Below, one piece after another: positions 1 to 32,224 of a stretch of DNA of 37,708 bases. The DNA comes from Burkholderiales bacterium (GTDB lineage Bacteria > Pseudomonadota > Gammaproteobacteria > Burkholderiales > Usitatibacteraceae), in the NCBI GenBank assembly GCA_043772475.1, contig JAYVGG010000255.1:1-37708 (forward strand), in the 5' to 3' direction. The notes under the pieces are model-generated. The model ran no database searches. It saw nothing but the letters and a program-made list of their open reading frames with translations, and was not told the DNA's origin. Made by a program: the position numbers and the translations under genes. Numbering within the stretch: the stretch's first letter is position 1; each line of letters begins with the position of its first letter.

Positions 1-616
1 CGTGTAGGTCGTGCCGACCAGTGCGCCGCCGCAGGTGCCGCCGACCGAGGCGGTGAAGCCAGCGTTCGGTGTCACGGCGAAGCTGGTGGTTGCGCCAGAA
101 GCCACTGTTTGCGCGGTGCTTGGGTTGATGCTGCCGTTGGCACCAGCGCTTGGTGTGACGGTGAAGGTGACAGGGATCGCAGCGAAGCTCGCAACCACGC
201 TGCAGTTCGCCGTGATCGGATTCGTCGTGTGGGTCGTGCCCACCAAACCACCGCCGCAGGTGCCAGCGACCGATGCCGTGAAGCCTGCGTTCGGTGTCAC
301 CGTGAAGAAGGTGGTTGCGCCAGAAGCCACTGTTTGCGCGGTGCTTGGGTTGATGCTGCCGTTGGCACCAGCGCTTGGCGTGACCGTGAAGGTGACAGGG
401 ATCGCAGTGAAGCTCGCAATCACGCTGCAGCTCGCCGTGATCGGGTTCGTCGTGTAGGTCGTGCCCACCAGTGCGCCGCCGCAGGTGCCGCCGACCGAGG
501 CGGTGAAGCCTGCGTTCGGTGTCACGGCGAAGCTGGTGGTTGCGCCAGAGGCCACGGTCTGTGCGGTGTTCGGGCTGATGCTGCCGTTGGCACCAGCGCT
601 TGGCGTGACGGTGAAT
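1..616 (-). repeat. Tandem 225-nt (75-aa) coding repeats, about 2.7 copies in the window; the array continues beyond the left edge
   Basis: Unit boundaries on the + strand are 1-225, 226-450 and 451-~616, each starting cgtgt(a/g)ggtcgtgcc. The encoded unit is FTVTPSAGANGSI(S/N)P.TAQTVASGATT.F.VTPNAGFTASV.GTCGG.LVGTT.TTNPITA.CSV.ASF.AIPVT. Confidence 0.9.
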
Positions 617-3033
617 TGAGGCGCCACCACCGTCAATACCGTCGTCGCCGCGTTACTGAGCGCCACTGTGCTCGCCGAAACGTTGAACGACCCAGAAACA
701 GGCGAGTAGCTCCCTGCCGTCGAGCTTGAAACGGGAATCGTGATTACGCACGAGGACGCGCCGGTGCTGCCAAAAGGAATCGAACCCGACCCCCAGCTAA
801 CCGTGAACCCTGTCGCCAACACCCCCGCAAAGCTAACCGTAGTAGCGCACGTGTTGGTGATCGAGCCGCCAGCTATCGCTAAATTCGGCGGTAGCGCAAT
901 ACTGCCGCTCGTAAAAGTGGCAGGCGTGCCGGTAGTGCTCGAAAGCGTCACAGTAAGCGCTGACGGCGCGGTAGCGGCAACGCTCGTCGGCAAAAATGCG
1001 CTTGTCATCTCAAATGGTGCGCTAGCCACTATCGTCGCCAGCACACCAGCACCCTCCTCATCCGAGCCAAAATTTATACCGCCGTTAACCTCAATCCCAA
1101 GCGGAGGCAGTGGGGGAGTTGCTGGCGAAAGCCCGGTCAGCGTGTAGGTGCATGTGCCCGTAGCGGGGATCACTGTAGCTAAGAGCGACGTATCGGTGCC
1201 AGATGTTAAAGGTGACAGTGAAAGCGTGCCACCACACACGGATTGCGGCGTTGGTGACGTAGAATTCAGGCCAAAAAGGTGAACGCCCACCGTACCGGGC
1301 ATCGCCGCGACTGGGGAGGGATTGGTGACTTTGACCGTCAGATTTCCGCCTGGCGCGATCGTCGTTGGCGACGCGGTAAGGCCGAATACGGTGGCAGGAT
1401 TTGTCGCGACTGCGGTGAACGAAGTCGCGCCGATCGTGACCGCGCCGGACGGCACAAGATAAGCGGGGCTCACGCGGGAAACTTGGACAGCGATGCTGAG
1501 GGTACATGGCGTGAAGGTTGCACTACCGCCCGTCCAGCTAAGCGACGAGCTGCCTAGCGTGTTGCCGGTAAGACCCGCCAATCCGCAACTGCTGGGGCCA
1601 GGCGTTACGCCTCTCAACGTCACGCCGGGGGGCAGGGTGACCGACCCCGCCCCGGCGGTCCAATTGCCCGGCAAGCCGCTAGGGTTAACTAGCGTGATAG
1701 TGAGACCCGTGTTCACGAACTCAAACAGCGAGCCGGGGCCGGCGTTGGTATGCGTCACGAAGCGCGTCTGACTGAATCCCAGCTGCATGACGGGTAACCC
1801 GACAGATAGCGTTGGCAGGTTCACAATGCCAATGGGCGAGGCACTGTCCATCGTAAGCGTTCCGGCGAGGACGCCTGGAGAGCCATCGCTATCGGGCGTG
1901 ATACTCGTCACAGGGATGTCCACGGTGCAGGTTCCGTTCGCGGGAATACTGCCACCCAAGAACGCGATGGTTGTTTGCCCAATGATCGGCGTAAACGGTT
2001 GAACTGCGCCAACGGATCCACCGCAGGCGTTGACGGGCAACGACACTGGAATAATGCTGTCCGGCAGAACGACGCTGAATGAATTAATCGGCGCGGTTGC
2101 TGCGCTGGCGTTGGTTAGCGTGAGGTTCAGGATGGACTGGCCACCCGCGGTAATGACATTCGGCACAAATGCGGCGCGAAGTTCATGCGGGATGAACGCG
2201 ATGGTGATCGTCTGATTCAGCGAAATCTGAGAGCCGACTTGGTAAGGCGGGACACCGTCCCGATCACGATCGAACGAGGGTATAGCTGGGATGGATGGAA
2301 CCAATCCCGCACGGATAATCGGCAGCGTTGACGGAACCTGGGGCACAAAGGCGCCGATAGATTTGACCAACAACCGCCCCGCTACGGTAGCCAATGCGCC
2401 GGACACGTTTATGCTATCCGCAGCAGGAAACGAGGACGCGTCAAGCCCGACGTCGGCCTCGTAGGTGCCCGAAAAACTAAGGTTTCCACCGACATTGATC
2501 GTGCCCCGCGCGCCTGCGCCGCCGGGCCGAAAGGTGGTGCTGAAAACCTGAACTAAACTAAAACCCAGGGTGAGATTCCCTTCCACCGCCCCGCCAAAAA
2601 AGTTCACGAACGATTGTGTTGGCACGGGCACGTGCGTTAGGGTCCCCGCCCCTTTTAGGGTGCCGACGTTGCGATTAGTCGCGGAATCGAACGCGAAGTC
2701 GAAGCTAGCTGAGTTGCTAGGACCGGTCACACCCAAGTGAAGGATTGAACCCGAGCCTATATCCAGCGTGCCGCCGACGGTCACGCTGTTGACGGTGATG
2801 GGCGGCGTACTGGCGGGGATTGTCACTGTGCGGGGGGTGGGGATGATGACGGTATCGACGCTCTGTGGCACGCCACTCCGGCAGTCTGCCCAAGTGGCCG
2901 GTTGAGTCCACGGGCCGTCGAGCGTTGCGGTACATGTGACCGCAGTTATCTGCGCCTGTACCCCCTGCGCGCTAACGAGAAGCGCGGCAAGCCCAATGAG
3001 TTTGAATAGCGTGCGTGTGAATATGTTTTTCAT
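1..3033 (-). CDS. Large secreted repeat/adhesin-like protein, N-terminal 1011 aa only (the ORF continues past the left edge)
   Basis: ATG at 3033-3031 follows an AGAGAG-type SD. My manual translation of this minus frame stays open for all 1011 codons down to position 1, and no ORF in this frame is listed in the track, which fits a missing stop. Sec signal MKNIFTRTLFKLIGLAALLVSAQGVQA|Q. After a beta-rich N-terminal region come ~90-100 aa modules, each with a Cys pair (NACGGSVGA...ANGTCTVDIPVTS; SSCGLAG...FTPCTLSIAVQVS; SVCGGTLS...ATGTCTYTLTG; NTCATTVS...ASSCVITIPVSS). These are followed by 75-aa InlB-B-repeat-like units. The + strand ORFs at 11-2215 are antisense shadows. Confidence 0.8.
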   Translation of the reverse strand, partial: MKNIFTRTLFKLIGLAALLVSAQGVQAQITAVTCTATLDGPWTQPATWADCRSGVPQSVDTVIIPTPRTVTIPASTPPITVNSVTVGGTLDIGSGSILHLGVTGPSNSASFDFAFDSATNRNVGTLKGAGTLTHVPVPTQSFVNFFGGAVEGNLTLGFSLVQVFSTTFRPGGAGARGTINVGGNLSFSGTYEADVGLDASSFPAADSINVSGALATVAGRLLVKSIGAFVPQVPSTLPIIRAGLVPSIPAIPSFDRDRDGVPPYQVGSQISLNQTITIAFIPHELRAAFVPNVITAGGQSILNLTLTNASAATAPINSFSVVLPDSIIPVSLPVNACGGSVGAVQPFTPIIGQTTIAFLGGSIPANGTCTVDIPVTSITPDSDGSPGVLAGTLTMDSASPIGIVNLPTLSVGLPVMQLGFSQTRFVTHTNAGPGSLFEFVNTGLTITLVNPSGLPGNWTAGAGSVTLPPGVTLRGVTPGPSSCGLAGLTGNTLGSSSLSWTGGSATFTPCTLSIAVQVSRVSPAYLVPSGAVTIGATSFTAVATNPATVFGLTASPTTIAPGGNLTVKVTNPSPVAAMPGTVGVHLFGLNSTSPTPQSVCGGTLSLSPLTSGTDTSLLATVIPATGTCTYTLTGLSPATPPLPPLGIEVNGGINFGSDEEGAGVLATIVASAPFEMTSAFLPTSVAATAPSALTVTLSSTTGTPATFTSGSIALPPNLAIAGGSITNTCATTVSFAGVLATGFTVSWGSGSIPFGSTGASSCVITIPVSSSTAGSYSPVSGSFNVSASTVALSNAATTVLTVVAPQFTVTPSAGANGSISPNTAQTVASGATTSFAVTPNAGFTASVGGTCGGALVGTTYTTNPITASCSVIASFTAIPVTFTVTPSAGANGSINPSTAQTVASGATTFFTVTPNAGFTASVAGTCGGGLVGTTHTTNPITANCSVVASFAAIPVTFTVTPSAGANGSINPSTAQTVASGATTSFAVTPNAGFTASVGGTCGGALVGTTYT

Positions 3034-3176
3034 TTTGATTCTCTCTGTAAATACCATCGCTTGAGCGATTTTCCCGGTGCTAAATGTGGTTAAACCCTAA
3101 TACTGGCGCGGCGTTTGCGGCGATCTCTCGTTTTGGTTACTGGCAACTGTTTGTGGCGGTTGAGGCAGCGCCTGCC

Positions 3177-5444
3177 TCACCCCCGCCGCCTAAACGCAAT
3201 CGCACCACTGATATTGCTATTCAAGTTGTACATCACGCCCGCACCACGCCCGGTGCGGCCGGTGAAAAATCCATCAATACTGCCGCTAGGTATTACCGGC
3301 GTGCAGCTGGGGGCACAGCTGATGGTGAGCGTGCCTGCCGGGGCGACGTTGGCGATGGCGGCACCGGCGTAGGTGGCGAAATACTGGGCGCGGTAAATAG
3401 GCACGTTGCTCGCGGCGGCGTTCCACGTCTGCCCGGCGATGGTGATGTTGAGGCTGGTGTTGACGGTTCGGGCGGAGAAATTGGCGCTGAGTGCGGCGCT
3501 ATTAAAGGTGCCGACGTTGCCATTGAGATCGGTGGGGCGCGTTGAGCCGATTACGTCATAGGTTGCGCTGCCGGTAAGCGGCAAGGCGGTGGGGCCGTTT
3601 TGCGCGCTTGAAAAAATGTAGTGGAGGCTGCGATTAGTGAGTGCTACCGCTTGCCCACCCACGGTGGCGCTGCCGCCAGACCAGCGCCCCCAGATTAAGC
3701 CGGTGGCAGCATCGGCACCGTTTTCGAGCACGGTGGCGCTACCCTGCGCGTAGGTAGCGTGGCCGACGATATCGGGGCCACGCGCGATGGGGCCCGCAAA
3801 CGCGGTGGCGCGCCCCTCGGCATCACTGGTGACTTCTTCAGGGCGGTTTACGGTGGCGTAGCTTCGGAAAAAACTGGCGTTGGCGAGCGTGTTGCTTGGG
3901 TCAGAAAGTAAGCCATTGCGGAAGGTGGCACCGATGTTTTGGACCGGGCCTTGGAAGGCGATGACGCCATTGATGGTTTGGGCACCTTGGCCGCAGGCGC
4001 AATTGGTGCGGTCACTAAAGCCGTAGCCGATGAGCGCACCATTGAGTGCTGCACCGGTGAAGCCGCCTTGCAAGGTGCCAACCAGCGCTGGGTTGGTAGC
4101 CGAGCTTTGGCCGGTGGCATTGGTGATGGTGAGCCGACCGCCGCCGGTGTAGGCGAAAAAGCTATTGAGCGAGAAGGCGACATTGCTGGCCGTGAGCGTC
4201 CATGCGCCAGCGGGCACGGTGGCGCTCGCGGGCATCGAGACACCGATGATCGCGTTTAGCGTGCGCGCGCTGAAATTAACATTGAGCACCGAATTAGTGA
4301 GCGCACCCACCGTGCCGAATTGATTGGTGGGGCTGGTGGCACCGGCGCGCGTGTAGCTCACGGTGCCGGTTAAGACATCGGACAAATAGCCCGCGTAGCC
4401 CGCGCCGCCGTAGCCCCAGTGAATCGGGGCGGCCACGCTGCTACCGGCACCGGTTGCGCCGTTCCAGCGGCCGATGACGATGCTATTGCCGTTGCCAATA
4501 TCAATACGCTGCACGTCGGCCGCCGTGCCGCCAGCGATGGCGGCGTTGAGACCGCTCTGATCGCCCGCATAGCCCACCACGCGGCGCAGGTTGCTGCCGT
4601 CAAGCGTGAGGCCGTCTCGCCCGGCTAAGCTTGCGATGGTGCCGCCATTTCCGGCGATCACGGCTTGCTGGAGGCCGAGCGGGTCGGTGGGGCTGTAAAG
4701 ATCGAGGGGATCCACCAGCACGTACCCTAGGCCGCTACCGCCGATCACGATTGCGCGTCCCACGGCATCCGGGCCGCGTGGCGGGATGTTTGCATCGCCT
4801 CCGTCATCAATCGCCTCGGCTTCCCCCGGCCCGACCATGATGCGCCCAGCTTCGAGCATACCGGGCGGGGTGGGTATAAATTGTGGCGCTTGACCATTGA
4901 GCACTTGCACGGTGTCGTTGGGGCCGGTAATCAGCGGCGGAAAATTGGTGTTGTTCGACAACACCTCATGGCTACCTTCGACGGTGTGATTGATGGTGCC
5001 GCCATCATCGGCGATCAAGATATTGAATGAGCCGCGAATGCCGACCGTGGCGGCGCGCGTTTTCATTTTGAATTTGTTGGCGTCGTTGCGCGAGAGTAGT
5101 TTGGTAAAGCTACGCAAGGTGCCGCGCACGAGATTTAAGATCGCCCCTTCGTCGCCATCGACTTTCTGCGCGTAGCGCTCAACGATAAGCTGGCTACTGG
5201 AGCGTAGCGAGAGCTTGGCTTTATCAACCATATCGAGCTGGGCTGCGCCGTTGGCACCAGTGGTGATGATGTCGCCTGCGGCAACCTCGGTGCCGGGCGT
5301 GGCCTGGCTGGTTTTGTCACCGCTTTTGAGCGTGACCTCGCCAACCACGTGGGTGAAGGTGCCGCTCTTGGCGAAAGCAGGGAGCGTCAGCGCTGTCAAT
5401 ATCAGCACGCTAAAGAGGCAGAGTTTTTGGATAAGATTTTTCAT
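3177..5444 (-). CDS. Secreted FecR-domain protein with two C-terminal TbpB/hemophilin-like beta-barrel modules (candidate Slam/T11SS cargo)
   Basis: 755-aa ORF with a GGAG SD before the ATG. Sec signal MKNLIQKLCLFSVLILTALTLPAFA|KSG contains no lipobox Cys. Residues ~28-140 match the FecR pattern (GEVTL....ATPG..V..GD.I.TG.NG.A.L.......L...S.L.......L.L..G..R). Residues ~322-499 and ~583-753 repeat a module: GRW.G... Y.G...G.(V/A)(S/T)Y...G.T.PT...G.VG.....L..NFSART(L/V)N ...W.. ASNV... G...GGF(T)G....GA...Y.......I.G.IAF. Confidence 0.75.
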   Translation of the reverse strand: MKNLIQKLCLFSVLILTALTLPAFAKSGTFTHVVGEVTLKSGDKTSQATPGTEVAAGDIITTGANGAAQLDMVDKAKLSLRSSSQLIVERYAQKVDGDEGAILNLVRGTLRSFTKLLSRNDANKFKMKTRAATVGIRGSFNILIADDGGTINHTVEGSHEVLSNNTNFPPLITGPNDTVQVLNGQAPQFIPTPPGMLEAGRIMVGPGEAEAIDDGGDANIPPRGPDAVGRAIVIGGSGLGYVLVDPLDLYSPTDPLGLQQAVIAGNGGTIASLAGRDGLTLDGSNLRRVVGYAGDQSGLNAAIAGGTAADVQRIDIGNGNSIVIGRWNGATGAGSSVAAPIHWGYGGAGYAGYLSDVLTGTVSYTRAGATSPTNQFGTVGALTNSVLNVNFSARTLNAIIGVSMPASATVPAGAWTLTASNVAFSLNSFFAYTGGGRLTITNATGQSSATNPALVGTLQGGFTGAALNGALIGYGFSDRTNCACGQGAQTINGVIAFQGPVQNIGATFRNGLLSDPSNTLANASFFRSYATVNRPEEVTSDAEGRATAFAGPIARGPDIVGHATYAQGSATVLENGADAATGLIWGRWSGGSATVGGQAVALTNRSLHYIFSSAQNGPTALPLTGSATYDVIGSTRPTDLNGNVGTFNSAALSANFSARTVNTSLNITIAGQTWNAAASNVPIYRAQYFATYAGAAIANVAPAGTLTISCAPSCTPVIPSGSIDGFFTGRTGRGAGVMYNLNSNISGAIAFRRRG

Positions 5445-5462
5445 TGTGGCTCCGGGGTGGCG

Positions 5463-6860
5463 CTATTGAATTTCGCAACGAATCGCCGACGACACCTCGT
5501 GGCGGCTGTAGTCGTAAATGGCAATGTTTGAGCTATTGCGCGAGGCCTGCCATTGCGCGTGCAGATTGCACTTGGGGGTGAAGCGCCAATTGGCACCGAG
5601 TGAAAAATCGGCCAGACGATCACGGCCAAATTCGATCTCGGTGGCACGTGCAAAGGCTTTGTCGTCGTTACGCTTGGTGTAGCCCAGCACGGTGAAAAGA
5701 TTGAGCTTTTCACTCATGCTGACTTGCCCGTAGGCACGCGCACCCGAGACGCGCTTCGATTTATCGGATTCGCCATCGGCTAACGTGCGGAGCGCGCGGT
5801 CCCGGCTGGTGTAGCCGCTTAGCTGGATAAGTGGCGCGCTGGCACCATCAAATTGGCGCAGCCAACCCGCCGAAAGTTGATTGGCGTTGAAGTCTTCGAT
5901 GTTGTTATCGGGGAAGCGAATGCGTAGGCTGGTGCCGCCGAAACTGAGCTGGTTTTGTGGCGTAATCGCGTAGCGGTACTCGGCCCCAACACTAGCACTG
6001 GTGCGGTCGTTGGTGGGTTTAGGCGTGCCGGGGGCATCGGCTTTTTGTTTGTACGCAGCGCCACCGGCATTCAACGTGACGCGGTGTTGCTCACGCGTCC
6101 AGATGGCCGCGGCGCGCAGGTCGGCATTGAGTAAATTAAAGAGGGTTTCTTTTTGGTAGGCACGCCCGCGCCCTTCAGCCGTGAGCTGGGCGGCCCACTC
6201 GGTTGAAAGCGGCATCCGGTAATCGCCACCGAGGCCGGCTGCAAAAAATGCCGCGCGGCGTTTAATGGCGTTACCCGTAGGCGATACTCCGGGAATCGCA
6301 AAAGCCGACTCAACCGCCGAGGTGAAATCAACCGGCACCCCGGTTACGTTGGTGTCGTAGCCTAGCTGCGTCTCGCCCCAGATAGAAAGTTTCTTGGCCG
6401 AGCTAGCGCGCTTTTCGCGAATGGCGGTGAGGTAGCGCTCGATGGTGGCGCGCGCAGCCTCGGGTGGGTTGGCGCGTTTGAGCGATAGGAGCGTCGATTC
6501 GGCGAGATCCATCGAGCCGGCGTGGAAGTAGGCGCGGCCCAAGTCAAGCCTCGCCCCGGCGTGCTTGGGCACGGCGGCCAGCACACGCTCGAGCGCCATA
6601 ATCGCCTCGGTGTATTTCAGGCTATCGAGTGCGGCAACACCGAGCAGGTAGTTGAATTGGGGGTTATCGAGGTTTTTGTCTTGGGCCTCGGCCAGAATCA
6701 CGAATGCTTGTTTGGCGTCACCCTTGGCGAGCAGAGCTTCTGCTTCACCGATTAGCTTGGGCTGCGCCCAGGCGGGCACACAAAACGCCGCAAACACCAA
6801 TAGCAGCGCGGGTTTCCACTGCATTGCGCGTGTTTTTTTATTGCGCTTATCTATCACCAT
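5463..6860 (-). CDS. Outer-membrane TPR plus beta-barrel protein, Slam/DUF560-like (surface lipoprotein assembly modifier / T11SS translocator)
   Basis: The ORF runs 5463-6902. I prefer the ATG at 6860 (AGGAAGAG SD 4 nt upstream); the ATG at 6824 is an alternative. Signal ...MQWKPALLLVFAAFCVPAWA|QP. The N-terminal ~120 aa are TPR-like helices (AEALLAKGDAKQAF...NYLLGVAALDSLKYTEAIMALERVLA...RLDLGRAYFHAGSMDLAE). These lead into YLTAIREKR...SIWGETQLGYDTNV and an amphipathic-strand barrel that ends SRNSSNIAIYDYSRHEV. The ~465 aa size and the architecture match Slam proteins as I remember them, and the gene stops 18 nt upstream of the start of the candidate cargo gene. Confidence 0.6.
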   Translation of the reverse strand: MVIDKRNKKTRAMQWKPALLLVFAAFCVPAWAQPKLIGEAEALLAKGDAKQAFVILAEAQDKNLDNPQFNYLLGVAALDSLKYTEAIMALERVLAAVPKHAGARLDLGRAYFHAGSMDLAESTLLSLKRANPPEAARATIERYLTAIREKRASSAKKLSIWGETQLGYDTNVTGVPVDFTSAVESAFAIPGVSPTGNAIKRRAAFFAAGLGGDYRMPLSTEWAAQLTAEGRGRAYQKETLFNLLNADLRAAAIWTREQHRVTLNAGGAAYKQKADAPGTPKPTNDRTSASVGAEYRYAITPQNQLSFGGTSLRIRFPDNNIEDFNANQLSAGWLRQFDGASAPLIQLSGYTSRDRALRTLADGESDKSKRVSGARAYGQVSMSEKLNLFTVLGYTKRNDDKAFARATEIEFGRDRLADFSLGANWRFTPKCNLHAQWQASRNSSNIAIYDYSRHEVSSAIRCEIQ

Positions 6861-7127
6861 TTGTCTCTTCCTGTTGTGTTCGCGTGGTGGCGATTCAGGC
6901 ATCCCGGTGTGCGATTCGATGAGCCGCCGCTAGCATATGAAAGACTAAGCATAGCAAGTTTGGGCTTCCTTACCACTTGTAAAATCACACGCACGCGCCA
7001 TAGCACCGAATATATTCCCCACGGCCTTACAATTAGACCTAGTTCAGCTCGACATCGCTATACCGCGATTACGGTATTGCGCTGGCAGCCTGGTTTATTT
7101 CTTTCGCCCCACTCGCAAGGCCCCATC

Positions 7128-7907
7128 ATGACTGACACCGCCGAACCTATCCTCGACATCACCCATCAAGGCGGCGTAACCCGCCTCACCCTTAACCGCC
7201 CCAAGCAGTACAACGCGCTCTCAAAGGCCATGCTGGACGCGCTGCATGAGGCTTTAGATGCGATTGCCCACGACACCAGCGTGCGGGTGGTGGTGATCGC
7301 GGCCCATGGCGGCGCATTTTGCGCGGGGCATGATTTGAAAGAAATGCGCGGCGCAAATGACCCCGCTTTTGTTTCGCAGCTTTTTGCGCGCTGCTCGGCG
7401 CTGATGCTAAAAATCGCCAAGCTGCCCGTGCCGGTGGTAGCTGAAGTGCAAGGCATGGCCACCGCAGCCGGGTGCCAGCTGGTGGCGCAGTGTGATTTGG
7501 CGGTGTGCGCTGATACGGCGCGTTTCGCGGTATCGGGTGTGAATTTGGGGCTCTTTTGCTCAACCCCTGCGGTGGCGCTCTCACGTGCAATCTCGCGGAA
7601 GCGCGCGGCGGAAATGTTGATGACCGGCGAATTTATTGATGCCGCTACCGCGCTCGATTGGGGCTTGGTGAATCGTGCGGTGCCTGCGGCCGCGTTGCGG
7701 GCTGAAACGCTAAAGCTCTGCGAAACCCTCAAAGCCAAGCCACGCGCGGCGCTTGCGATGGGCAAGGCGCTTTTTTATCGGCAGTTGGAGATGGGTATTG
7801 AGGCCGCGTATCAAGATGCGTCGGCAACCATCACGTGCAACTTTGCGATGCCGGAGGCGGTGGAAGGGGTTACTGCGTTTTTGGAGAAGCGTAAGCCGGT
7901 GTGGTGA
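7128..7907 (+). CDS. Enoyl-CoA hydratase/isomerase (crotonase) family protein
   Basis: In-frame ATG at 7128 gives MTDTAEPILDITHQGGVTRLTLNRPKQYNAL. Crotonase motifs are present (AFCAGHDLKEM, G.ATAAGCQLV..CDL). The upstream 89 codons of the listed ORF cross the divergent promoter region. Confidence 0.85.
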   Translation: MTDTAEPILDITHQGGVTRLTLNRPKQYNALSKAMLDALHEALDAIAHDTSVRVVVIAAHGGAFCAGHDLKEMRGANDPAFVSQLFARCSALMLKIAKLPVPVVAEVQGMATAAGCQLVAQCDLAVCADTARFAVSGVNLGLFCSTPAVALSRAISRKRAAEMLMTGEFIDAATALDWGLVNRAVPAAALRAETLKLCETLKAKPRAALAMGKALFYRQLEMGIEAAYQDASATITCNFAMPEAVEGVTAFLEKRKPVW

Positions 7908-17868: not shown

Positions 17869-19250
17869 GTGAACCAGCCGTCGCCGAAAAACTAGCGGCA
17901 GCGATACACGCTGCCACCCGCGCAGGCATCCCGCCTGCCATGCGTGCCATGGCGCAACGCTTGGTGCTCGATATCGCTGGCCTCTGTATTGCTGCACGCC
18001 AGAGTGACTACGTGGCCGCCACCATCGCGGGCACGAGTGAGCCGGGTGTGTGTACGGTGATCGGCCACGCGGGCAGGATGGACGTGGCCTCGGCAGCCCT
18101 CATCAACGGCACGGCTTCCCACGGCGAAGATTTTGATGACACCTACGAGGGCGGCCCGGTGCATTCGGGCGTGGTGATTGTGCCGGCTGTTTTAGCCGCA
18201 GCCGAGCGGCATGGACTGTCGGGTGAAGATGTTTTAGACGGCATCGCAATCGGCTGCGAAGTGATGTGCCGCTTATGTGCCGTTAAGCCAAAAGCCTTAC
18301 ACCACGCGGGTTTCCACCCGACTGCTATCTTTGGCGTGATTGGTGCAACGGCTGCCGTAGCGGCTGCCTTAAAACTCACGCCCGCACAAACGGCATCGGC
18401 ATTTGGCATTTCGGGCAGCATGGCGGGTGGCATCATCGAGTATCTAGCGGAAGGCACGTGGACGAAACGGATGCACCCCGGCTGGGCCGCGCAGAGTGGC
18501 TATCGTGCGGCACGATTGGCCGAGGCCGGGTTCGCCGGGCCGCGCACTGTATTTGAAGGTGAGCATGGGCTTTTCAACGGCTTCGCGCGCGCCAAGACGG
18601 GCGAATGCAATTGGCCGGGGCTACTCAATGATTTCGGCACGCGCTGGGCATCCGTCGATATCGCTTTCAAGGCCTACGCCTGTGGAACGATGACGCATCC
18701 GTACATCGACTGCGCGCGCGCCCTTGCTGCCACGATGAAATCAAGCGGCAGCGCCTTAGAGGCGATCAAGGAAATTGAATGCGAAACCTCCGACGGCTAC
18801 GTGCATCGCCTATGGGAGCCGCTCGCGAATAAGCAACGTCCGCCGAACGCCTACGCCGCCAAATTCAGCGTGCCGTATGCGATTGCGGTGGCGATGATTT
18901 TTGACGATGCGGGCTTGAGCCAGTACACCGAAGCGATGGTCGCCGACCCGCGCGTGCAAGCGCTCGCGACGAAAATCCACTACATCGTGGATCCGCAAAA
19001 CCCATATCCGGCGCGGTACACGGGGCATTTACGGATTACGCTTCGTGACGGAAAAATCATCGAAGGCCGACAGCCGCATCTGCGTGGTGGGGTGGCTGAG
19101 CCGTTGTCCGATGACGATATTACGCAGAAATTTTTTGCTAATTGTGTGCATGGTGGGATGACGCGCATAGAAGCGAATGCCGCGAAAAAAATGTTGGATG
19201 AGATTTTTTCGGCGAGCCAGATTGATCTGGCGACATTACGGTTTACCTAA
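17865..19250 (+). CDS. MmgE/PrpD family protein (paralog 2)
   Basis: 461 aa. Motifs NGTASHGEDFDDTY, GFHPTAIFG..GA.AA. The start overlaps the paralog 1 stop (ATGA), which implies translational coupling. Confidence 0.8.
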   Translation: MSEPAVAEKLAAAIHAATRAGIPPAMRAMAQRLVLDIAGLCIAARQSDYVAATIAGTSEPGVCTVIGHAGRMDVASAALINGTASHGEDFDDTYEGGPVHSGVVIVPAVLAAAERHGLSGEDVLDGIAIGCEVMCRLCAVKPKALHHAGFHPTAIFGVIGATAAVAAALKLTPAQTASAFGISGSMAGGIIEYLAEGTWTKRMHPGWAAQSGYRAARLAEAGFAGPRTVFEGEHGLFNGFARAKTGECNWPGLLNDFGTRWASVDIAFKAYACGTMTHPYIDCARALAATMKSSGSALEAIKEIECETSDGYVHRLWEPLANKQRPPNAYAAKFSVPYAIAVAMIFDDAGLSQYTEAMVADPRVQALATKIHYIVDPQNPYPARYTGHLRITLRDGKIIEGRQPHLRGGVAEPLSDDDITQKFFANCVHGGMTRIEANAAKKMLDEIFSASQIDLATLRFT

Positions 19251-19291
19251 TTTTCACCACACACGAAATTGATTTAGTGCGCGCATCATGC

Positions 19292-19405
19292 GAAGCACTT
19301 CCCCCTTTGGAAAAGGGGGATTGAGGGGGATTTCACAGCGGTTGCGAATCGCTCACGTCCGAAAATTCTCCTCAATCCTCCTTTGCAAAGGAGGAAGTGC
19401 CTTGC
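19292..19405. repeat. Composite palindromic REP/MITE-like element: two inverted copies of a ~42-nt hairpin-containing unit
   Basis: The left arm 19292-19333 is gaagcacttCCCCCTTTggaAAAGGGGGattgagggggattt. The reverse complement of the right arm 19363-19405 is gcaaggcacttCCTCCTTTGCAAAGGAGGattgaggagaattt. A 29-nt centre separates the arms. Confidence 0.7.
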
Positions 19406-19458
19406 GAAATTCCCGACAAATTTGCAGCTTCGTCGTTCGCTACCTTCCAAGGATTTAC

Positions 19459-26884: not shown

Positions 26885-27742
26885 ATGAAAATTCCCAAGC
26901 GCTTGGAACCCTTGCTCGAAGACGGCCTCATCACGAGCGTGGTGCGTCAGCTCATGAGCGGTAAAGAGGCGATGGTATTTGTGGTGCGCTGCGGCGACGA
27001 TGAGCCCGCACGCTGTGCCAAGGTCTACAAAGAGGCAAACAAGCGCGCGTTTCGCCAAGCGGTGGATTACACTGAAAATCGCAAAACCAAAAATTCACGC
27101 CAAGCGCGCGCGATGGCAAAAGGCTCGCGCTACGGGCGTGAATCGCAAGAGGCTGCTTGGCAGAGTGCTGAAGTCGATGCGCTTTATCGTCTCGCGGCTG
27201 CCGGTGTGCGGGTGCCCAAGCCCTACAATTTTCACGAGGGTGTCTTGCTCATGGAACTGGTGGCGGATGCCGATGGCAATGCCGCACCGCGCTTAAATGA
27301 CGTGGAATTTTCCGAGGAAATCGCGCTGAAATACCACGAGATGCTGATCCGTGAAGTGGTGCGAATGTTGTGCGCGGGCATTATTCATGGCGACTTGAGT
27401 GAATTTAATATCTTGGTTGCAGCCGATGGCCCGGTGATTATTGATTTGCCGCAGGCAGTTGACGCCGCCGGTAATAACCATGCAGAAGCCATGCTGGATC
27501 GCGATGTCGGCAATTTACGCAATTACTTCGGGCAATTTGCGCCAGCACTCCTCACCACCGCCTACGCAGCCGAAATCTGGGCGCTCTACAAGGCCGGCAC
27601 GCTCACGCCAGAATCCGCACTCACCGGGCGATTCCAAAAGAGCCAGAGAAAAGCCGATGTGGGAGCACTCTTGCGCGAGATTGAGGACGTGGAGCTGGAA
27701 GAAAAAGCGCGCTTAATGCGAATGAGCGAAAAACGAGATTGA
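26885..27742 (+). CDS. RIO1-like atypical protein kinase (PA4780-type)
   Basis: 285 aa. Motifs SGKEAMVFVV...AKVYK, LMELV, and IIHGDLSEFNILV...VIIDLPQAV (catalytic and metal-binding loops). Confidence 0.75.
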   Translation: MKIPKRLEPLLEDGLITSVVRQLMSGKEAMVFVVRCGDDEPARCAKVYKEANKRAFRQAVDYTENRKTKNSRQARAMAKGSRYGRESQEAAWQSAEVDALYRLAAAGVRVPKPYNFHEGVLLMELVADADGNAAPRLNDVEFSEEIALKYHEMLIREVVRMLCAGIIHGDLSEFNILVAADGPVIIDLPQAVDAAGNNHAEAMLDRDVGNLRNYFGQFAPALLTTAYAAEIWALYKAGTLTPESALTGRFQKSQRKADVGALLREIEDVELEEKARLMRMSEKRD

Positions 27743-27856
27743 ATTGGCAAGTAAGCCGAAAGCCCGCACCGTTATTGGGTTTCCGGGCATTGCTGTAAAT
27801 CAAAAAACGAACGCCACACACCCGCAGATTCACGCGTAGAATGGTTCGTCATAATT

Positions 27857-29083
27857 TTGGAGTCCACCTTGAATCTGCCCTCTGATGTAAATTTTCTCAA
27901 TGGTTTAATCAGTCTTCCTTGGTGGGGTTATCTCGTTGTTGGGTTGGTGCTCACGCACATCACAATCGCGTCCGTGACGATTTTTTTGCACCGCGCGCAG
28001 GCGCATCGCGGGCTCGATCTGCATCCGATCATGAGCCATTTTTTCCGTTTCTGGCTGTGGATTTCGACGGGCATTGAGACCCGCGAATGGGTCGCCATTC
28101 ATCGTAAACACCACGCCAAATGCGAGACGGCGGATGATCCGCACTCGCCCCAACATCACGGCATTAAAAAAGTGCTGCTCGATGGCTACGGGCTTTATTG
28201 GACCGAATCACAAAACCCCGAGACCATCGCCAAATACAGCCACGGCGTGCCGGATGATTGGCTTGAGCACAACCTGTATGAAAAATATAGCTGGCAGGGT
28301 GTCGCCCTCTTGCTCATCACCCACCTGATTTTGTTTGGGCCCATTGGTGCCACCATCTGGGCCGTGCAAATGGCGTGGATACCGTTTCACGCGGCCGGCA
28401 TCATCAATGGCATCGGTCACTACTGGGGCTATCGCCATTACACGGTGAATGATACGAGCCGCAATATCGTGCCGATTGCGTTTTGGATTGGCGGCGAAGA
28501 GCTACACAATAATCACCACGCTTTCCCTACCTCTGCCCGGTTTTCGATGCGTTGGTACGAGTTTGATCTGGGATGGGCATACATTCGCACGCTGTCGATG
28601 TTGGGATTAGCCGAGGTCAAAAAAGTAGCCCCGCGCCCGCGATTTAACATGAACAAAGTCACCTGCGATGTGGAGACCGTCCACGCCGTGATCGCGCACC
28701 GCTACGAAATCATCACCAAATACGCGGGCTCGTTAAAGGAAACCTACGCCGCCGAAATCGCCAAACTCCGCGCCAATGGCCATGTTCCAGCACTGTCGAG
28801 CTTGCGTGAAAAAGTTGCCTCGAAACATTTTCGTAACTGGCTTAGAAGCGATGCGAATCAACTCACGAGCGAGCAACACGCTACGCTTGCCGAGACATTC
28901 CAACACAGCCGTGTGCTAGAGCTGCTCTACAAGATGCGCCAAGAGCTCGCGCAATTATGGGAGCGCTCGACCCTCACGGCAGAGGAATTGGTGGCGAAGC
29001 TGGAAGACTGGTGCCGCCGCGCGGAAGCGTCCGGGATAGAAGCGCTGCAAGAGTTTGCGCTGCGATTGCGCTCCTACGCGTAG
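27857..29083 (+). CDS. Membrane acyl-CoA/acyl-lipid fatty acid desaturase (DesA-like)
   Basis: 408 aa from a TTG start. His boxes HRAQAH, HRKHH and HNNHH are present, with N-terminal transmembrane segments. Confidence 0.75.
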   Translation: MESTLNLPSDVNFLNGLISLPWWGYLVVGLVLTHITIASVTIFLHRAQAHRGLDLHPIMSHFFRFWLWISTGIETREWVAIHRKHHAKCETADDPHSPQHHGIKKVLLDGYGLYWTESQNPETIAKYSHGVPDDWLEHNLYEKYSWQGVALLLITHLILFGPIGATIWAVQMAWIPFHAAGIINGIGHYWGYRHYTVNDTSRNIVPIAFWIGGEELHNNHHAFPTSARFSMRWYEFDLGWAYIRTLSMLGLAEVKKVAPRPRFNMNKVTCDVETVHAVIAHRYEIITKYAGSLKETYAAEIAKLRANGHVPALSSLREKVASKHFRNWLRSDANQLTSEQHATLAETFQHSRVLELLYKMRQELAQLWERSTLTAEELVAKLEDWCRRAEASGIEALQEFALRLRSYA

Positions 29084-29097
29084 TAGTTTTTCTCCCA

Positions 29098-29127
29098 TAA
29101 AAAAACCCGCCAGCTGGCGGGTTTTTT
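29098..29127. terminator. Bidirectional rho-independent terminator between the desaturase and rpmG
   Basis: aaaaaaaa-CCCGCC-agct-GGCGGG-tttttt. A GC stem flanked by an A-run and a T-run. Confidence 0.85.
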
Positions 29128-29147
29128 GTTGGAGCCAAACTTAAAAA

Positions 29148-29201
29148 TTACTTAAGCTTTGTTTCCTACTTAAGCTTTGTTTCCTACTTAAGCTTTGTTT
29201 C
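29148..29201 (-). repeat. Perfect 18-nt tandem triplication of the rpmG 3' end including the stop codon
   Basis: Minus-strand reading is GAAACAAAGCTTAAGTAG | GAAACAAAGCTTAAGTAG | GAAACAAAGCTTAAGTAA, which is ETKLK* three times in the rpmG frame. Confidence 0.95.
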
Positions 29202-29339
29202 CTTATACATCACATGTTTACGCGCCTTGGGATCGAATTTCATGATCTCCATTTTCTCGGGCATGGTGCGTTTATTTTTGCTGGTGGTGTAGAAATGGCC
29301 GGTGCCAGCAGAGGATTCGAGTTTGATTTTGTCGCGCAT
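29184..29339 (-). CDS. rpmG: 50S ribosomal protein L33
   Basis: Manually translated because it is below the ORF-track size cut-off: [51 protein letters not shown]. An AAGGAAA SD precedes the start, which lies 16 nt after the rpmB stop. Confidence 0.9.
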
Positions 29340-29355
29340 GATGGTTTCCTTTGAA

Positions 29356-29592
29356 TTAGACCGCTACGCCTTGCGCGCGTAATTCGGCGAGCACAGCGTC
29401 GATTCCATTTTTGTCGATAGTGCGAAGACCGGCGTTGGTTAAACGCAGACGCACCCAGCGGTTTTCAGATTCGACCCAAAAGCGGCGGTATTGCAGATTC
29501 GGTAAAAAGCGACGTTTGGTTTTGTTGTTCGCGTGGGAAACATTGTTACCCACCATTGGGCGTTTGCCCGTTACTTGGCAGACTCGTGCCAT
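29356..29592 (-). CDS. rpmB: 50S ribosomal protein L28
   Basis: 78 aa. [38 protein letters not shown] is the canonical L28 sequence. Confidence 0.95.
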
Positions 29593-29702
29593 ATTGCACC
29601 TCGATAAACGGTTAAGAATCGGGCCGAAATGACCGGCTCCATTTGTGGTTGGTGTTGCAACTACGCCGGGTTTAACCAGCGAAGCCCAAAATTATAACCA
29701 AA

Positions 29703-30386
29703 TTAAGCACTTAGCGCAATCCCCTGCTCTACAAACGAGACCGAGGCACCGGGGGCGACGATGACGTGATCCATGACGCGAATATCCACCAAGGCCAAGG
29801 CGGCTGCGAGCGTATGCGTGAGGTTTTTGTCGGCGAGGCTGGCATCCGGCGTGCCCGAGGGATGATTGTGGGCAAAAATCACTGCACCCGCATTGTGCGC
29901 GAGCGCGCGCTTGACGATCTCACGGGGGTACACACTCGTCTGCGTTAAGGTGCCGCGAAAGATCTCCTCGACGGCGATCACGCGATTTTGCGCGGTTAAA
30001 AATACCGCCACGAATACTTCATGCGGCAAGCGCGATAAGGTCTGCTTCAAATAGTCACGCACGGCCTGTGGGGTGGCTAATGCGTCGCTCAATTTGATCT
30101 CTTCAGCCAAGGCGCGTTTAGACATCTCCAGCACCGCCTGCAACTGCACGTATTTCGCTTCACCCATGCCCTTCACGGCGCAGAGGCTTTCTTGGCTGGC
30201 GGCAAATAATCCGTTGAGTCCGCCGAAGGTACTCACCAGCTCGCGCGCAAGATCGACCGCACTTTTGCCGCGCACGCCGACCCGCAAAAAAATCGCCAGC
30301 AATTCAGCATCAGAAAGTGCCGCCGCACCTTGTTTTAGCAAGCGTTCACGCGGGCGCTCATCTTCGGGCCAATCGGTAATGGGCAT
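29703..30386 (-). CDS. radC: RadC-family JAB/MPN domain protein (UPF0758)
   Basis: 227 aa. Contains RPRERLL..GA..LSD.ELLAI.LR.G and the HNHPSG JAMM motif, in the classical position next to rpmB-rpmG. Confidence 0.85.
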
Positions 30387-30451
30387 GGCGGGTCTCGGTT
30401 AAAATGCGTGGAGTTTGAAGACTAAATGTTAGCCCACTTCTCGGAACCCCC

Positions 30452-30901: not shown

Positions 30902-30974
30902 GGTCAGCCGCTTTTAGCTTGCAACGTTAATATCAACGATACAGCAGCGCACCTCACTCGAAAGCAAAACGCAT

Positions 30975-31442: not shown

Positions 31443-31458
31443 GGGCGCGGGGTTTTGG
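31166..31458 (+). repeat. Direct repeat copy A (3' two-thirds of the DUF192 gene plus 16 nt); copy B lies at 32225-32514
   Basis: By-eye alignment gives about 95% identity over ~290 nt, with 13 substitutions in the coding part and a 1-nt indel near each end. Confidence 0.9.
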
Positions 31459-31618
31459 AGCGGCGGCTCGCGCAACGAATTATCCAAATACGAGAATTCG
31501 CGATTCGTTATATATTTATGTTTCACGCTCGGTTCTTGGGCTACATGATTTCAACCTTGGGTGAGTTGTGGCAACAGCCACAGAAGAATTTCAACCATCA
31601 GCCAAAAAGAATTTCAGC

Positions 31619-32205: not shown

Positions 32206-32224
32206 GAATGGTGCAAGACATATG

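Follow-up and report, generated by a model that had tools for sequence, protein, structure and literature searches.

Organization of the Locus

The window considered here is a stretch of 37,708 nucleotides from a Burkholderiales bacterium of the family Usitatibacteraceae (GCA_043772475.1, contig JAYVGG010000255.1). Near the start of the stretch, its minus strand carries a cassette of three genes whose products are, in order of reading, an outer-membrane protein, a 755-aa protein that joins a FecR-type domain to a TbpB-like C-terminal half, and a large repeat protein (Table 1). The outer-membrane gene is separated from the FecR gene by 18 bp, and its translation probably begins with the ATG at 6860, which gives the 465 aa called on the ENA contig. 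No convincing terminator was found between the FecR gene and the third gene. A start codon and ribosome-binding site were read for the third gene at 3033, and its signal peptide is MKNIFTRTLFKLIGLAALLVSAQGVQA with cleavage ahead of Q. The encoded protein has three tandem repeats of ~75 aa at the start of the window and a Pfam match to DUF7933; the gene is cut by the window edge, with the C-terminus of its product outside both the window and the ENA contig.

Table 1. Features of the three-gene cassette in window coordinates.
Feature	Position	Strand	Residues	Basis
Large Sec-exported repeat protein, third cassette gene	1..3033	minus	at least 1011 aa	open frame, edge-cut
FecR/TbpB-like protein	3177..5444	minus	755 aa	ORF
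Sec (type I) signal peptide, predicted cut AFA/KSG	5370..5444	minus	aa. 1–25	sequence reading
FecR-type β-sandwich head	4842..5363	minus	aa. 28–201	Pfam, Foldseek, pLDDT ~90
Disordered Gly/Asp/Pro-rich tether	4695..4841	minus	aa. 202–250	pLDDT < 50 at aa. 203–249 (47 aa)
TbpB-like N-lobe (handle sheet and β-barrel)	3933..4694	minus	aa. 251–504	all-β model, pLDDT ~90
TbpB-like C-lobe (handle and barrel), end ...ISGAIAFRRRG	3180..3932	minus	aa. 505–755	model, Foldseek
Divergent Slam / type 11 secretion (T11SS) outer-membrane protein, putative	5463..6902	minus		ORF, orthologs, model
TPR domain of outer-membrane protein	6399–6761	minus	aa. 48–168	helices in model
14-strand β-barrel of outer-membrane protein	5469–6392	minus	aa. 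171–478	model

Domain Anatomy of the FecR-Headed Protein

From a reading of the sequence, the 755-aa protein opens with MKNLIQK, then LCLFSVLILTALTL, then PAFA ahead of KSG, which together provide a basic n-region, an h-region of 14 residues and an AxA site. No lipobox is present, and the sole early cysteine, C9, lies in the context QKLC and does not fit one. Across 120 homologs, the residues behind the AxA site form a near-invariant SGxFT(Y/F)VxGxV, and a lipobox-like pattern is absent from 110. The other ten carry such a motif. The AlphaFold2 model (pLDDT = 85) places a helix at aa. 2–18; outside the signal peptide region there is a single short helix and no second hydrophobic segment. The protein is thereby read as non-lipidated and Sec-exported, and it should not be filed as a surface lipoprotein since the acylated lipobox cysteine of that class is missing. 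Its layout is kept in the best 120 of 222 homologs, nearly all of which are 750–836 aa in length.

FecR was the only Pfam family identified in the protein (PF04773, aa. 59–156, E = 1.5e-7, 32.2 bits against a cut-off of 24), with no anti-sigma, FecR_N or FecR_C domain. An initial annotation, made from the sequence alone, had described a Sec signal without a lipobox and a FecR domain without an anti-sigma or transmembrane part, and the data agree on both counts. In addition to a profile match above the gathering score, the head has the fold of an anti-sigma periplasmic domain: Foldseek aligned it with 4m0h/4m0n and with PupR (6ovk) over ~144 columns at a target-normalized TM-score of 0.51–0.54. 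An N-terminal FecR domain was found by Pfam in all ten distant relatives scanned, and among homologs conservation is as high in the head as in the lobes. A FecR domain with nothing but a signal peptide had been regarded as unusual. This cannot be upheld since such proteins are already known among the LysM-FecR partners of CHASE2 (PMC5192318), as SMc02177, a periplasmic FecR-domain protein of the S. meliloti cAMP regulon (PMC5498481), and in the LipL45 and Lsa33 models. These two Leptospira models were the best NCBIfam matches of the 755-aa protein; both were sub-threshold, as was the LapA retention module.

The first ~60–70 residues of the head are similar to the retention module, or plug, that sits in the periplasm in LapA/MpIBP adhesins, with a match to the "cell surface anchoring domain" of an adhesin (PDB: 5ix9, TM-score 0.74, rmsd 1.0, 61 columns). 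Membership in the LapA-type module was rejected, as retention_LapA (NCBIfam NF033682) scored 23.2 bits (E = 6e-5) against a cut-off of 50 and the similarity is local and structural.

The Gly/Asp/Pro-rich region that had been noted behind the FecR domain corresponds to the disordered tether. In 66 homologs, the tether spans 40–100 aa, is never shorter than 40 aa and is rich in G/T/A/P/S. Column identity is lowest in the tether (0.37), ranges over 0.7–0.78 in the folded parts and is highest in the C-lobe barrel (0.78).

The two modules that had been proposed as paralogs lie one in each lobe, module 1 (aa. 322–499 = 3948–4481) in the N-lobe and module 2 (aa. 583–753 = 3186–3698) in the C-lobe; these positions, like those given for the FecR domain (aa. 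28–140 = 5025–5363), convert correctly. Both modules carry GRWxG, (S/T)Y...G.T.PT, NFSARTxN, W...ASNV, GxFTG and IxGxIAF, and BLASTP aligned them with 31% identity over 191 columns (E = 8e-14). Judged by this alignment, their likeness is far beyond chance. The duplication had also been taken to distinguish the protein from classical Slam substrates. That contrast fails, as a two-lobed duplicated build is typical of TbpB and LbpB too, and the alignments of the model take in each of the TbpB lobes.

A search of the model against the PDB with Foldseek returned bilobed TbpB as the top 18 matches (E = 4e-8 to 2e-5, probability 0.99–1.0), and the alignments to full-length TbpB extended over 540–730 columns to cover both lobes. 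FecR/PupR periplasmic domains ranked next. Matches to one lobe followed, first HphA/hemophilin (PDB: 8gmm, 6om5, 8glo, 7re4), then the TbpB C-lobe, fHbp and the LbpB N-lobe. The TbpB-like character attributed to the modules is therefore recovered, and neither a β-helix nor an autotransporter passenger, the kind of unrelated fold that was to have counted against it, was among the matches. The TM-scores against whole TbpB are low (0.17–0.26) because the lobe arrangement differs.

At the level of sequence, profiles of the modules retrieved no TbpB-family chain from the PDB sequences, which leaves the relationship as a shared fold, short of established homology. Pfam TbpB_B_D (PF01298) did not match the 755-aa protein at E ≤ 1. 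It was the only Pfam family to recur among 24 diverse modules (2/24), the best match having an E-value of 0.0041 and 18.1 bits against a cut-off of 26 (profile positions 8–121 of 126), and the relative P0366 gave a sub-threshold E-value of 0.023. On the evidence of the model, the C-terminal ~500 residues are predicted to be TbpB-like in fold only, with the handle sheet and 8-strand barrel expected of that fold. The C-lobe is the presumed targeting domain for the secretor.

The Outer-Membrane Neighbor

The AlphaFold2 model of the outer-membrane protein (pLDDT = 82.5) contains seven helices and 14 strands. As modeled, it has the Slam architecture, in which a TPR domain at the N-terminus leads into a barrel of 14 strands within ~450–500 aa. 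The top TM-scores in a Foldseek search were to 14-strand barrels, namely OmpG (0.66–0.70), an engineered loop-deletion OmpG (0.72) and CymA (0.62). The lowest E-values belonged to PelB (1e-11), an E. coli porin (2x9k) and EstA, an autotransporter. FadL and BcsC were near, and no solved Slam structure was among the matches.

Pfam identified TPR_19 and TPR_16 in the window protein. SlipAM/DUF560 (PF04575) was not matched, by the barrel alone even at E ≤ 10, and weak Pfam/NCBIfam matches were to OMP_b-brl, BBP2_2 and EpsL. Among the orthologs, SlipAM was matched in 43 of 56 (E ≤ 0.01) and TPR_Slam (PF24575) in 23 of 56. The SlipAM scores of P0123 (26.1 bits), which is 70% identical to the window protein, P0197 (25.0) and P0173 (24.9) lie just above the gathering cut-off of 22. 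Over its full length, the window protein shares 30% identity (E = 3e-52) with an outer-membrane protein that has an unflagged SlipAM match, the strongest class within that listing. Slam membership of the window protein thus rests on the SlipAM matches of its orthologs, and computed profile matches place the family as a whole within SlipAM.

Gene Pairing, Family Size and Genomic Context

An outer-membrane homolog lies directly upstream of the FecR gene on the same strand in 69 of 69 close loci (median gap 60 bp), where secretor and partner genes are strictly paired 1:1, and it is placed likewise in all eight distant relatives with upstream DNA. As in Slam systems, the putative secretor gene adjoins a putative cargo gene whose product has a C-terminal TbpB-like barrel. 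The initial annotation had expected an adjacent DUF560 gene; a Slam-type gene is indeed the neighbor at every one of these loci, but the window copy itself lacks the PF04575 match.

A profile search with the C-lobe identified at least 943 cluster representatives at 50% identity, most of them ending in ...G(V/A)xAF(K/H/R)R, and the number of modules per protein ranges from one to nine across the family. The module is modeled nowhere above threshold in Pfam, NCBIfam or PDB sequences, database names of the members stop at "FecR domain-containing protein", and FecR is never given as a cargo in the T11SS cargo papers searched. The hosts are uncultured environmental Betaproteobacteria.

In related loci, the position of the third gene is occupied by genes for Ig-repeat proteins of 540–2600 aa, which have choice-of-anchor D domains and, at the C-terminus, a conserved Cys-loop tag. 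The position and kind of this downstream giant gene are conserved in ~33 of 46 loci, hence not universally, and its products are weakly similar in sequence between loci. Given this partial spread and weak likeness, a functional link to the secretion pair is a conjecture. CHASE2 and cyclase genes adjoin some distant relatives of the pair. The ORFs examined in the window and the close clade include no ECF sigma factor, TonB-dependent transducer or CHASE2 gene, and no LapG/LapD genes occur here. No heme or iron genes lie near the window pair, no TonB-dependent receptor or uptake genes were found nearby in the loci examined, and no cassette examined contains glycosyltransferase or polysaccharide synthesis genes.

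A Proposed Secretion Pair and Its Alternatives

The computed domain anatomy, fold similarities, SlipAM family membership, strict pairing and family size are consistent with a dedicated type 11 (Slam-type) secretion pair, which the genes at 5463–6860/6902 and 3177–5444 quite likely encode. From this we infer export by the neighbor, a surface location for the lobes and a role for the head. The 755-aa protein would cross the inner membrane via Sec and be cleaved after AFA without lipidation. Its C-terminal half would fold in the manner of TbpB into two lobes, each with a handle sheet and a small β-barrel. The adjacent TPR and 14-strand barrel protein may recognize the last, most conserved barrel and bring both lobes out to the cell surface in the way that Slam exports TbpB and hemophilin. 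The FecR-type β-sandwich and the 40–100-residue tether would take the place of the TbpB lipid and anchor peptide, so that the head may be the end through which the molecule interacts or is anchored. Its likely partner would be the downstream giant Ig-repeat surface protein in the window clade and the adjacent CHASE2 cyclase in other clades.

It may tentatively be considered that the lobes alone reach the surface while the head stays in the periplasm, with the tether running through the 14-strand barrel as part of a lipid-free anchor or sensor. The protein could then pass information or hold partners across the outer membrane. In some lineages those partners would be CHASE2 cyclases, in the lineage of the window the tagged giant proteins. 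FecR-type domains are periplasmic in the sources consulted (SMc02177, PMC5498481; LysM-FecR partners of CHASE2 kinases, PMC5192318), CHASE2 and cyclase genes neighbor distant relatives of the pair, and there is a precedent in NsrA, an outer-membrane protein that feeds CHASE2 cyclases (PMC7529298, PMC13001267). In terms of domain order, the head stands where TbpB has its lipid and anchor peptide. The retention-module likeness at its beginning, its lobe-like level of conservation, the minimum length of the tether and the strict 1:1 pairing of the genes all point the same way. However, the known T11SS cargos, hemophilin and HphA among them, are exported whole and have the N-terminal domain as their working part. 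Furthermore, a CHASE2 gene is absent from the window and from the cassette of the close clade, and the retention-module score, at 23 against a family cut-off of 50 bits, may reflect a common β-sandwich. The more specific proposal, in which a Slam-type barrel exports the lobes only and the threaded tether and periplasmic head anchor a surface receptor through the pore, thereby coupling outside binding to periplasmic partners, is rather doubtful.

Another possibility, also somewhat unlikely and the one favored in the initial annotation, is a hemophilin-like fate in which the complete 755-aa chain would end up in the medium, with the FecR head as a passenger that binds an external ligand. The absence of a lipobox and the resemblance in structure to HphA and hemophilin, two Slam cargos that are released, would fit this fate, as would the standard T11SS model of a variable N-terminal effector joined to a C-terminal targeting barrel (PMC12282271). 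The N-terminal FecR domain is constant among the distant relatives, unlike the diverse effectors of known cargos, and the loci offer no nearby TonB-dependent receptor or uptake genes to take up a captured ligand. The lipobox-like motif in ten of the 120 homologs also hints at membrane attachment of some members.

That the neighbor is instead a TPR-barrel polysaccharide exporter or a porin, with the FecR/TbpB-like protein an unexported periplasmic accessory, is improbable. PelB as the top match by E-value and BcsC near it are both TPR and barrel exopolysaccharide exporters, and the window copy weakly matches OMP_b-brl, BBP2_2 and EpsL in place of SlipAM. Against this are the 14 strands of the model and its top TM-scores to 14-strand barrels, the SlipAM and TPR_Slam matches among orthologs (43/56 and 23/56), the lack of polysaccharide synthesis or glycosyltransferase genes in the cassettes, and the Slam cargo fold of the partner protein. 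Finally, a miscalled or truncated FecR-type anti-sigma regulator, suggested by the Pfam match and the database name, is effectively refuted by the domain anatomy: the FecR domain is N-terminal and directly behind a cleavable signal peptide with no cytoplasmic anti-sigma domain, FecR_N, FecR_C or transmembrane helix, the 18-bp gap rules out an upstream in-frame exon for an anti-sigma or transmembrane part, the 755-aa layout recurs in the best 120 of 222 homologs, and the window and related loci contain neither an ECF sigma factor nor a TonB-dependent transducer.

As a dedicated secretion pair, the two genes would represent a large, undescribed class of Slam/type 11 systems in environmental bacteria. 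The T11SS has been studied almost solely in animal-associated bacteria, and no cargo is known for the many clusters from soil and water (PMC8406197, PMC12282271). The locus provides a concrete and very widespread putative cargo class for divergent secretors, with at least 943 clusters and one to nine modules, which takes the TbpB fold far beyond iron piracy in a lipid-free layout. The recurrent neighbors, CHASE2 cyclases and Cys-loop-tagged giants, suggest that outer-membrane export may be linked to second-messenger signaling and to the anchoring of giant surface proteins. Should the threaded-tether arrangement be true, it would amount to cell-surface signaling built on a type 11 secretor in place of a TonB-dependent transducer, and would give "choice-of-anchor" proteins a new way of being sorted or anchored.

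Comparison with Known Systems

With the FecR/PupR anti-sigma regulators (PDB: 6ovk), the 755-aa protein shares the Pfam domain and a fold match of ~144 residues (target-normalized TM-score 0.54). It differs in having no anti-sigma domain, transmembrane helix or detected C-terminal STN-like subdomain, in the N-terminal rather than C-terminal position of the FecR domain, and in the lack of sigma factor and transducer genes. As in the LapA/MpIBP adhesins (5ix9, NF033682), a folded domain stands at the N-terminus, ahead of a long body that is, or here would be, exposed at the surface. LapA lacks a signal peptide and relies on a TolC-like pore, whereas the 755-aa protein carries a Sec signal and is thus not a type 1 secretion substrate.

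A FecR domain with a signal peptide only is also found in the LysM-FecR and CHASE2 kinase "BiofilmReg" operon (PMC5192318), and the CHASE2 and cyclase genes beside distant members of the FecR/TbpB-like family extend the resemblance to CHASE2-partnered FecR proteins. NsrA of S. meliloti (PMC7529298) is a functional analog, being an outer-membrane component upstream of a CHASE2 sensor. These FecR-CHASE2 systems lack TbpB-like lobes and a Slam-type neighbor, while the window clade is without an adjacent CHASE2.

The predicted T11SS cargos of Grossman et al. 2025 (PMC12282271) likewise have a conserved C-terminal barrel, an N-terminal domain and a co-located outer-membrane gene, and the cargo of non-cluster-1 secretors of water and soil organisms is given there as unknown. 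The FecR-headed TbpB-like family is undescribed among those architectures. "FecR" is absent from the main text and appears in the supplement only as a co-occurring Pfam family in neighborhood tables, beside sigma-70 families.

Hemophilin and HphA (Bateman 2021, PMC8560813; bioRxiv 10.1101/2023.03.29.534853) resemble the 755-aa protein in their non-lipidated Sec signal, C-terminal 8-strand export barrel and adjacent dedicated secretor. Hemophilins have one barrel, a heme-binding N-terminal clamp and a TonB-dependent receptor partner, whereas the 755-aa protein combines two lobes with a FecR head and a long tether, and its gene has no heme or iron genes nearby.

Compared to the Slam systems of Neisseria with TbpB, LbpB and fHbp (Slam1; Hooda 2017, PMC5449769; Huynh 2022, PMC9090332), the proposed cargo of the pair has no lipobox or lipid anchor and carries a folded FecR-type N-terminal domain instead. 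In sequence, the likeness to TbpB_B_D and SlipAM lies at the family cut-offs or under them, a TonB-dependent receptor partner is missing, relatives have one to nine modules, and the hosts are environmental rather than animal-associated. The likenesses are those of architecture. In both, a TPR and 14-strand barrel outer-membrane protein adjoins the gene of its substrate, the substrate is two-lobed with a handle and small barrel in each lobe and a disordered segment before the lobes, and conservation is highest in the C-terminal barrel, whose last strand has the pattern G-x-x-A-F-basic.

Domain composition of the FecR/TbpB-like protein

The initial annotation described a FecR domain that is exported by a Sec signal peptide with no lipobox, carries no anti-sigma part and precedes two related TbpB-like modules. 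This observation was confirmed, and the amino acid positions assigned to the parts of the protein converted correctly to nucleotide positions throughout. The amino terminus (MKNLIQK-LCLFSVLILTALTL-PAFA/KSG, with the slash marking the cleavage site) is that of a standard signal peptide, and the sole early cysteine (QKLC) lies outside any lipobox. The only Pfam domain identified was FecR (aa. 59–156, E = 1.5e-7, 32.2 bits against a cut-off of 24), with no match to anti-sigma, FecR_N or FecR_C families. A classical anti-sigma role for the FecR domain is excluded by this anatomy. The two modules are true paralogs, aligning to each other by BLASTP with 31% identity (E = 8e-14). The features considered here are collected in the table below.

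Table. Coordinates of the FecR/TbpB-like protein, its neighbors and comparable genes at related loci
Feature	Position	Strand	Remarks
Third gene, giant-protein kind	1-3033 (start 3033)	minus	at least 1011 aa, cut by the window edge
FecR/TbpB-like protein	3177..5444	minus	755 aa
Outer-membrane protein (TPR repeats and barrel)	5463-6902	minus	18 bp upstream of the FecR/TbpB-like gene
All-β head	aa 28-201		AlphaFold2 model
Tether	aa 203-249		AlphaFold2 model, pLDDT <50
First all-β lobe	aa 251-504		AlphaFold2 model
Second all-β lobe	aa 505-755		AlphaFold2 model
Giant-protein genes at related loci (examples)	L001:10420-14409; L009:12445-17511; L014:5180-11224; L038 (two genes); L039 (two genes)		downstream of the FecR/TbpB-like gene
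Distant pair members flanked by a CHASE2 and adenylate/guanylate cyclase gene	L088:3200-5440; L089:8780-11008; L090:3916-6144

A total of 222 homologs were identified at E ≤ 1e-3. Among the best 120 of these, nearly all are 750–836 aa in length, each originates from a metagenome or MAG, and the names, where given, are limited to "FecR domain-containing protein" or "hypothetical". In the same 120 sequences, a near-invariant SGxFT(Y/F)VxGxV motif follows the AxA site and a lipobox-like pattern is absent from 110. The other ten (P0093, P0094, P0098, P0101, P0103, P0107 and others) present a lipobox-like L(V/I/S)(A/S)C within the hydrophobic region of the signal peptide, 15–20 residues before the conserved AxA/SG site; some members of the family may be lipidated.

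A perfect short hairpin (GGCAG-GCG-CTGCC, window 3164-3176) with no T-run lies directly 3' of the stop codon and was not scored as a terminator. A scan of window 2800-7400 for terminators and promoters returned nothing that exceeded shuffled expectation.

Predicted fold and resemblance to TbpB

An AlphaFold2 model of the 755-aa protein was calculated from an alignment of 66 sequences (mean pLDDT = 85.3). When the model was searched against the PDB with Foldseek, the top 18 matches were full-length, two-lobed TbpB structures (E = 4e-8 to 2e-5, probability 0.99–1.0, 540–730 columns aligned). The TM-scores to whole TbpB are low (0.17–0.26) because the arrangement of the lobes differs. Second in the ranking were periplasmic domains from anti-sigma factors of the FecR type (4m0h, 4m0n and 6ovk, the latter from PupR), with target-normalized TM-scores of 0.51–0.54 over approximately 144 columns. 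These were followed by HphA and hemophilin, Slam cargos that are not lipidated (8gmm, 6om5, 8glo, 7re4), and then by the TbpB C-lobe, fHbp and the LbpB N-lobe. The TbpB-like reading of the initial annotation is supported by these matches, and an autotransporter or β-helix passenger was rejected as no such fold appeared among them.

Searches of PDB sequences with the single protein, a full-length profile, a C-lobe profile and a profile of diverse modules (A1, A3 and A4, respectively, for the three profiles) produced either nothing or chance matches to antibodies; therefore, the link to TbpB rests on the fold. The Pfam family TbpB_B_D was matched below threshold by two modules from a diverse set of 24 (E = 0.0041 for the better, profile positions 8–121 of 126) and by one distant relative (P0366, E = 0.023). 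From the model, both lobes are predicted to be TbpB-like in fold, and homology to TbpB is probable, not proven.

The outer-membrane neighbor

The start of the upstream gene is probably at 6860 since the gene call on an identical ENA contig gives a protein of 465 aa. Neither the whole protein nor its barrel alone matched SlipAM (DUF560, PF04575) in searches of Pfam and NCBIfam, where weak matches to generic barrel families and EpsL were obtained. Since the window copy has no SlipAM match, membership in the Slam, or type 11 secretion (T11SS), family is argued by way of its orthologs. At E ≤ 0.01, SlipAM was matched by 43 of 56 orthologs and TPR_Slam by 23 of 56. The ortholog P0123, which is 70% identical, scored 26.1 bits against a SlipAM cut-off of 22 (profile positions 47–280 of 288). 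The neighbor also aligned over its full length, with 30% identity (E = 3e-52), to an outer-membrane protein with an unflagged SlipAM match, which is the strongest class of the listing concerned.

In the AlphaFold2 model of the neighbor (pLDDT = 82.5), exactly 14 strands come after the seven helices. By TM-score, the best Foldseek matches were 14-stranded barrels such as OmpG (0.70); by E-value, PelB, 2x9k (an entry for an E. coli porin) and the autotransporter EstA ranked highest, with the TPR-barrel exporter BcsC in sixth place. No solved Slam structure was present among the top 50 PDB matches listed. From the orthologs and the model, we conclude that the neighbor is a putative, divergent member of the Slam/T11SS family of borderline standing.

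Conservation of the gene pair

According to the initial annotation, its reading would be refuted if homologs usually lacked an adjacent DUF560 gene, and this was not the case: in all 69 of the 69 close loci for which the upstream DNA exceeded 1.4 kb, an outer-membrane homolog was situated immediately upstream on the same strand (median gap 60 bp). The 80 loci from species-representative genomes are uncultured without exception; their hosts are mostly Betaproteobacteria (Usitatibacter, Nitrosomonadaceae, Rhodocyclaceae, Burkholderiales), with two MAGs labelled Lysobacter. A tblastn search of a plasmid collection returned no relatives.

A C-lobe profile was searched against 1.84 billion cluster representatives and matched 943 proteins at E ≤ 1e-3, 175 of them at E ≤ 1e-30. 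These proteins are between about 500 and 3351 aa long, with the module present one to nine times; a signal peptide followed by AGxxQFVxGxV opens most of them, and most terminate in ...SGVAAF(K/H/R)R. Each of the ten distant relatives scanned, one with a named origin in Desulfobacterales, has an amino terminal Pfam FecR domain and no other domain above threshold. Where upstream DNA was available (8 of 8), the gene is preceded by that of a 440–465-aa TPR protein homologous to the outer-membrane protein of the window (25–33% identity, E = 1e-25 to 5e-68). SlipAM is matched by a number of these TPR proteins. The size of the family and the recurrence of both partners argue that the two-gene unit is ancient and widespread.

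Two variants of the arrangement were observed. One Usitatibacter contig (L072, 10001-21821) appears to hold two cassettes approximately 8 kb apart, with a second outer-membrane homolog at 18148-19440 followed by a second FecR/TbpB-like gene. At a distant locus (L092:7119-7940), the outer-membrane gene is separated from the large FecR-module gene by the gene for an additional 273-aa protein, which consists solely of a signal peptide and FecR domain and has the appearance of a head on its own.

Associated genes

In the close clade, the gene 3' of the FecR/TbpB-like gene usually encodes a giant, Sec-exported Ig-repeat protein of 540–2600 aa with He_PIG, DUF7933, ASH and choice-of-anchor D domains. 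Of 46 loci with sufficient downstream sequence, about 33 encode such a protein, at times two. The reading of the giant protein as a further cargo, equipped with a TbpB-like barrel of its own, was rejected since BLASTP of the modules against three of these proteins gave nothing meaningful. The giant proteins end in a conserved tag, G-x-G-C-R-x-F-(S/G)...R...C-COOH, situated right behind the choice-of-anchor D domain. Its full pattern is G-x-G-C-R-(W/Y/L)-F-S-x4-6-(S/A)-R-F-F-x-T-x-C, in which approximately 15 residues separate the two cysteines and no transmembrane helix is present. NCBIfam has no model for it, choice-of-anchor D being the only match, so the tag may represent a signal for sorting or anchoring that is as yet undescribed and is tied to the cassette.

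The third gene of the window is also incomplete on the identical ENA contig, which stops sooner than the window, and therefore its tag is inferred rather than seen. Its sequence similarity to other giant proteins is local only. The 3' part of the gene (window 1-730) contains three near-identical tandem repeats of approximately 75 aa (FTVTPSAGANGSI...TTNPITA.CSV.ASF), which also yield long spurious plus-strand ORFs (11-457, 109-729).

In one relative (L085:2686-5082), the FecR-module gene is followed by a gene for a GAF-MshEN-T2SSE ATPase, of the kind that belongs to type 2 secretion or type IV pilus systems. Among the distant lineages examined, two have a CHASE2 and nucleotide-cyclase gene adjoining the pair, and a cNMP-binding Ser/Thr kinase is additionally present at L088 and L093. 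The neighbors of these distant loci suggest that the FecR head is linked to CHASE2 sensing. FecR-type periplasmic proteins partner CHASE2 kinases in Burkholderia (PMC5192318), and NsrA of S. meliloti is an outer-membrane protein feeding CHASE2 cyclases (PMC7529298, PMC13001267). The window contains no CHASE2 or cyclase genes.

The other window ORFs examined have ordinary chromosomal functions (molybdopterin oxidoreductase subunits, enoyl-CoA hydratase, MFS, TctC, PrpD, SDR, LD-carboxypeptidase, GH44, RIO kinase and UvrD-like helicase); genes for iron uptake, sigma/anti-sigma factors or TonB-dependent proteins were not found in this set. One ORF at 27857-29083(+) joins a fatty-acid desaturase domain (aa. 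22–245) to an ISL3-family transposase fragment (aa. 283–407), which suggests an insertion-sequence junction. The GC content falls from about 0.60 to 0.52–0.55 across window ~27-34 kb (27000-34000), so this segment may be mobile or acquired.

Proposed mechanism

The neighbor and the 755-aa protein are likely to form a dedicated T11SS pair that exports non-lipidated lobes. The 755-aa protein would cross the inner membrane by Sec and receive no lipid, and the neighbor would carry the TbpB-like lobes across the outer membrane. The C-terminal barrel, which is highly conserved (column identity of 0.78 as compared to 0.37 for the tether), is the predicted targeting element for the neighbor.

A less probable arrangement, though one to be taken seriously, is that of a threaded, lipid-free anchor or sensor of which the FecR head would be the periplasmic end. 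The head takes the exact place that the lipid and anchor peptide occupy in TbpB, and the tether behind it is never shorter than 40 residues. The first ~60–70 residues of the head are similar to the retention module of LapA/MpIBP adhesins, which is periplasmic (Foldseek 5ix9, TM-score 0.74, rmsd 1.0; NCBIfam E = 6e-5, below cut-off), and the CHASE2 genes beside distant pairs are likewise compatible with an anchor or sensor. The proposal of the initial annotation that the FecR domain is itself a secreted passenger is about as doubtful. That the neighbor is a polysaccharide exporter is unlikely.

Comparison with known systems

The core interpretation of the initial annotation stands, with two of its arguments set aside: duplication of the module does not distinguish the protein since this is the norm in TbpB, and FecR domains accompanied only by a signal peptide are already known. 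In the T11SS cargo surveys searched, FecR is not mentioned as a cargo and occurs solely as a co-occurring neighborhood Pfam family beside sigma-70 families. The outer-membrane protein of the window would be a borderline member of the Slam/T11SS family. Its putative cargo shares the predicted fold of TbpB but fails the TbpB_B_D sequence test, and unlike the Slam surface lipoproteins, it fails the lipoprotein test. By analogy, the pair would work in the manner of Slam with TbpB or hemophilin.
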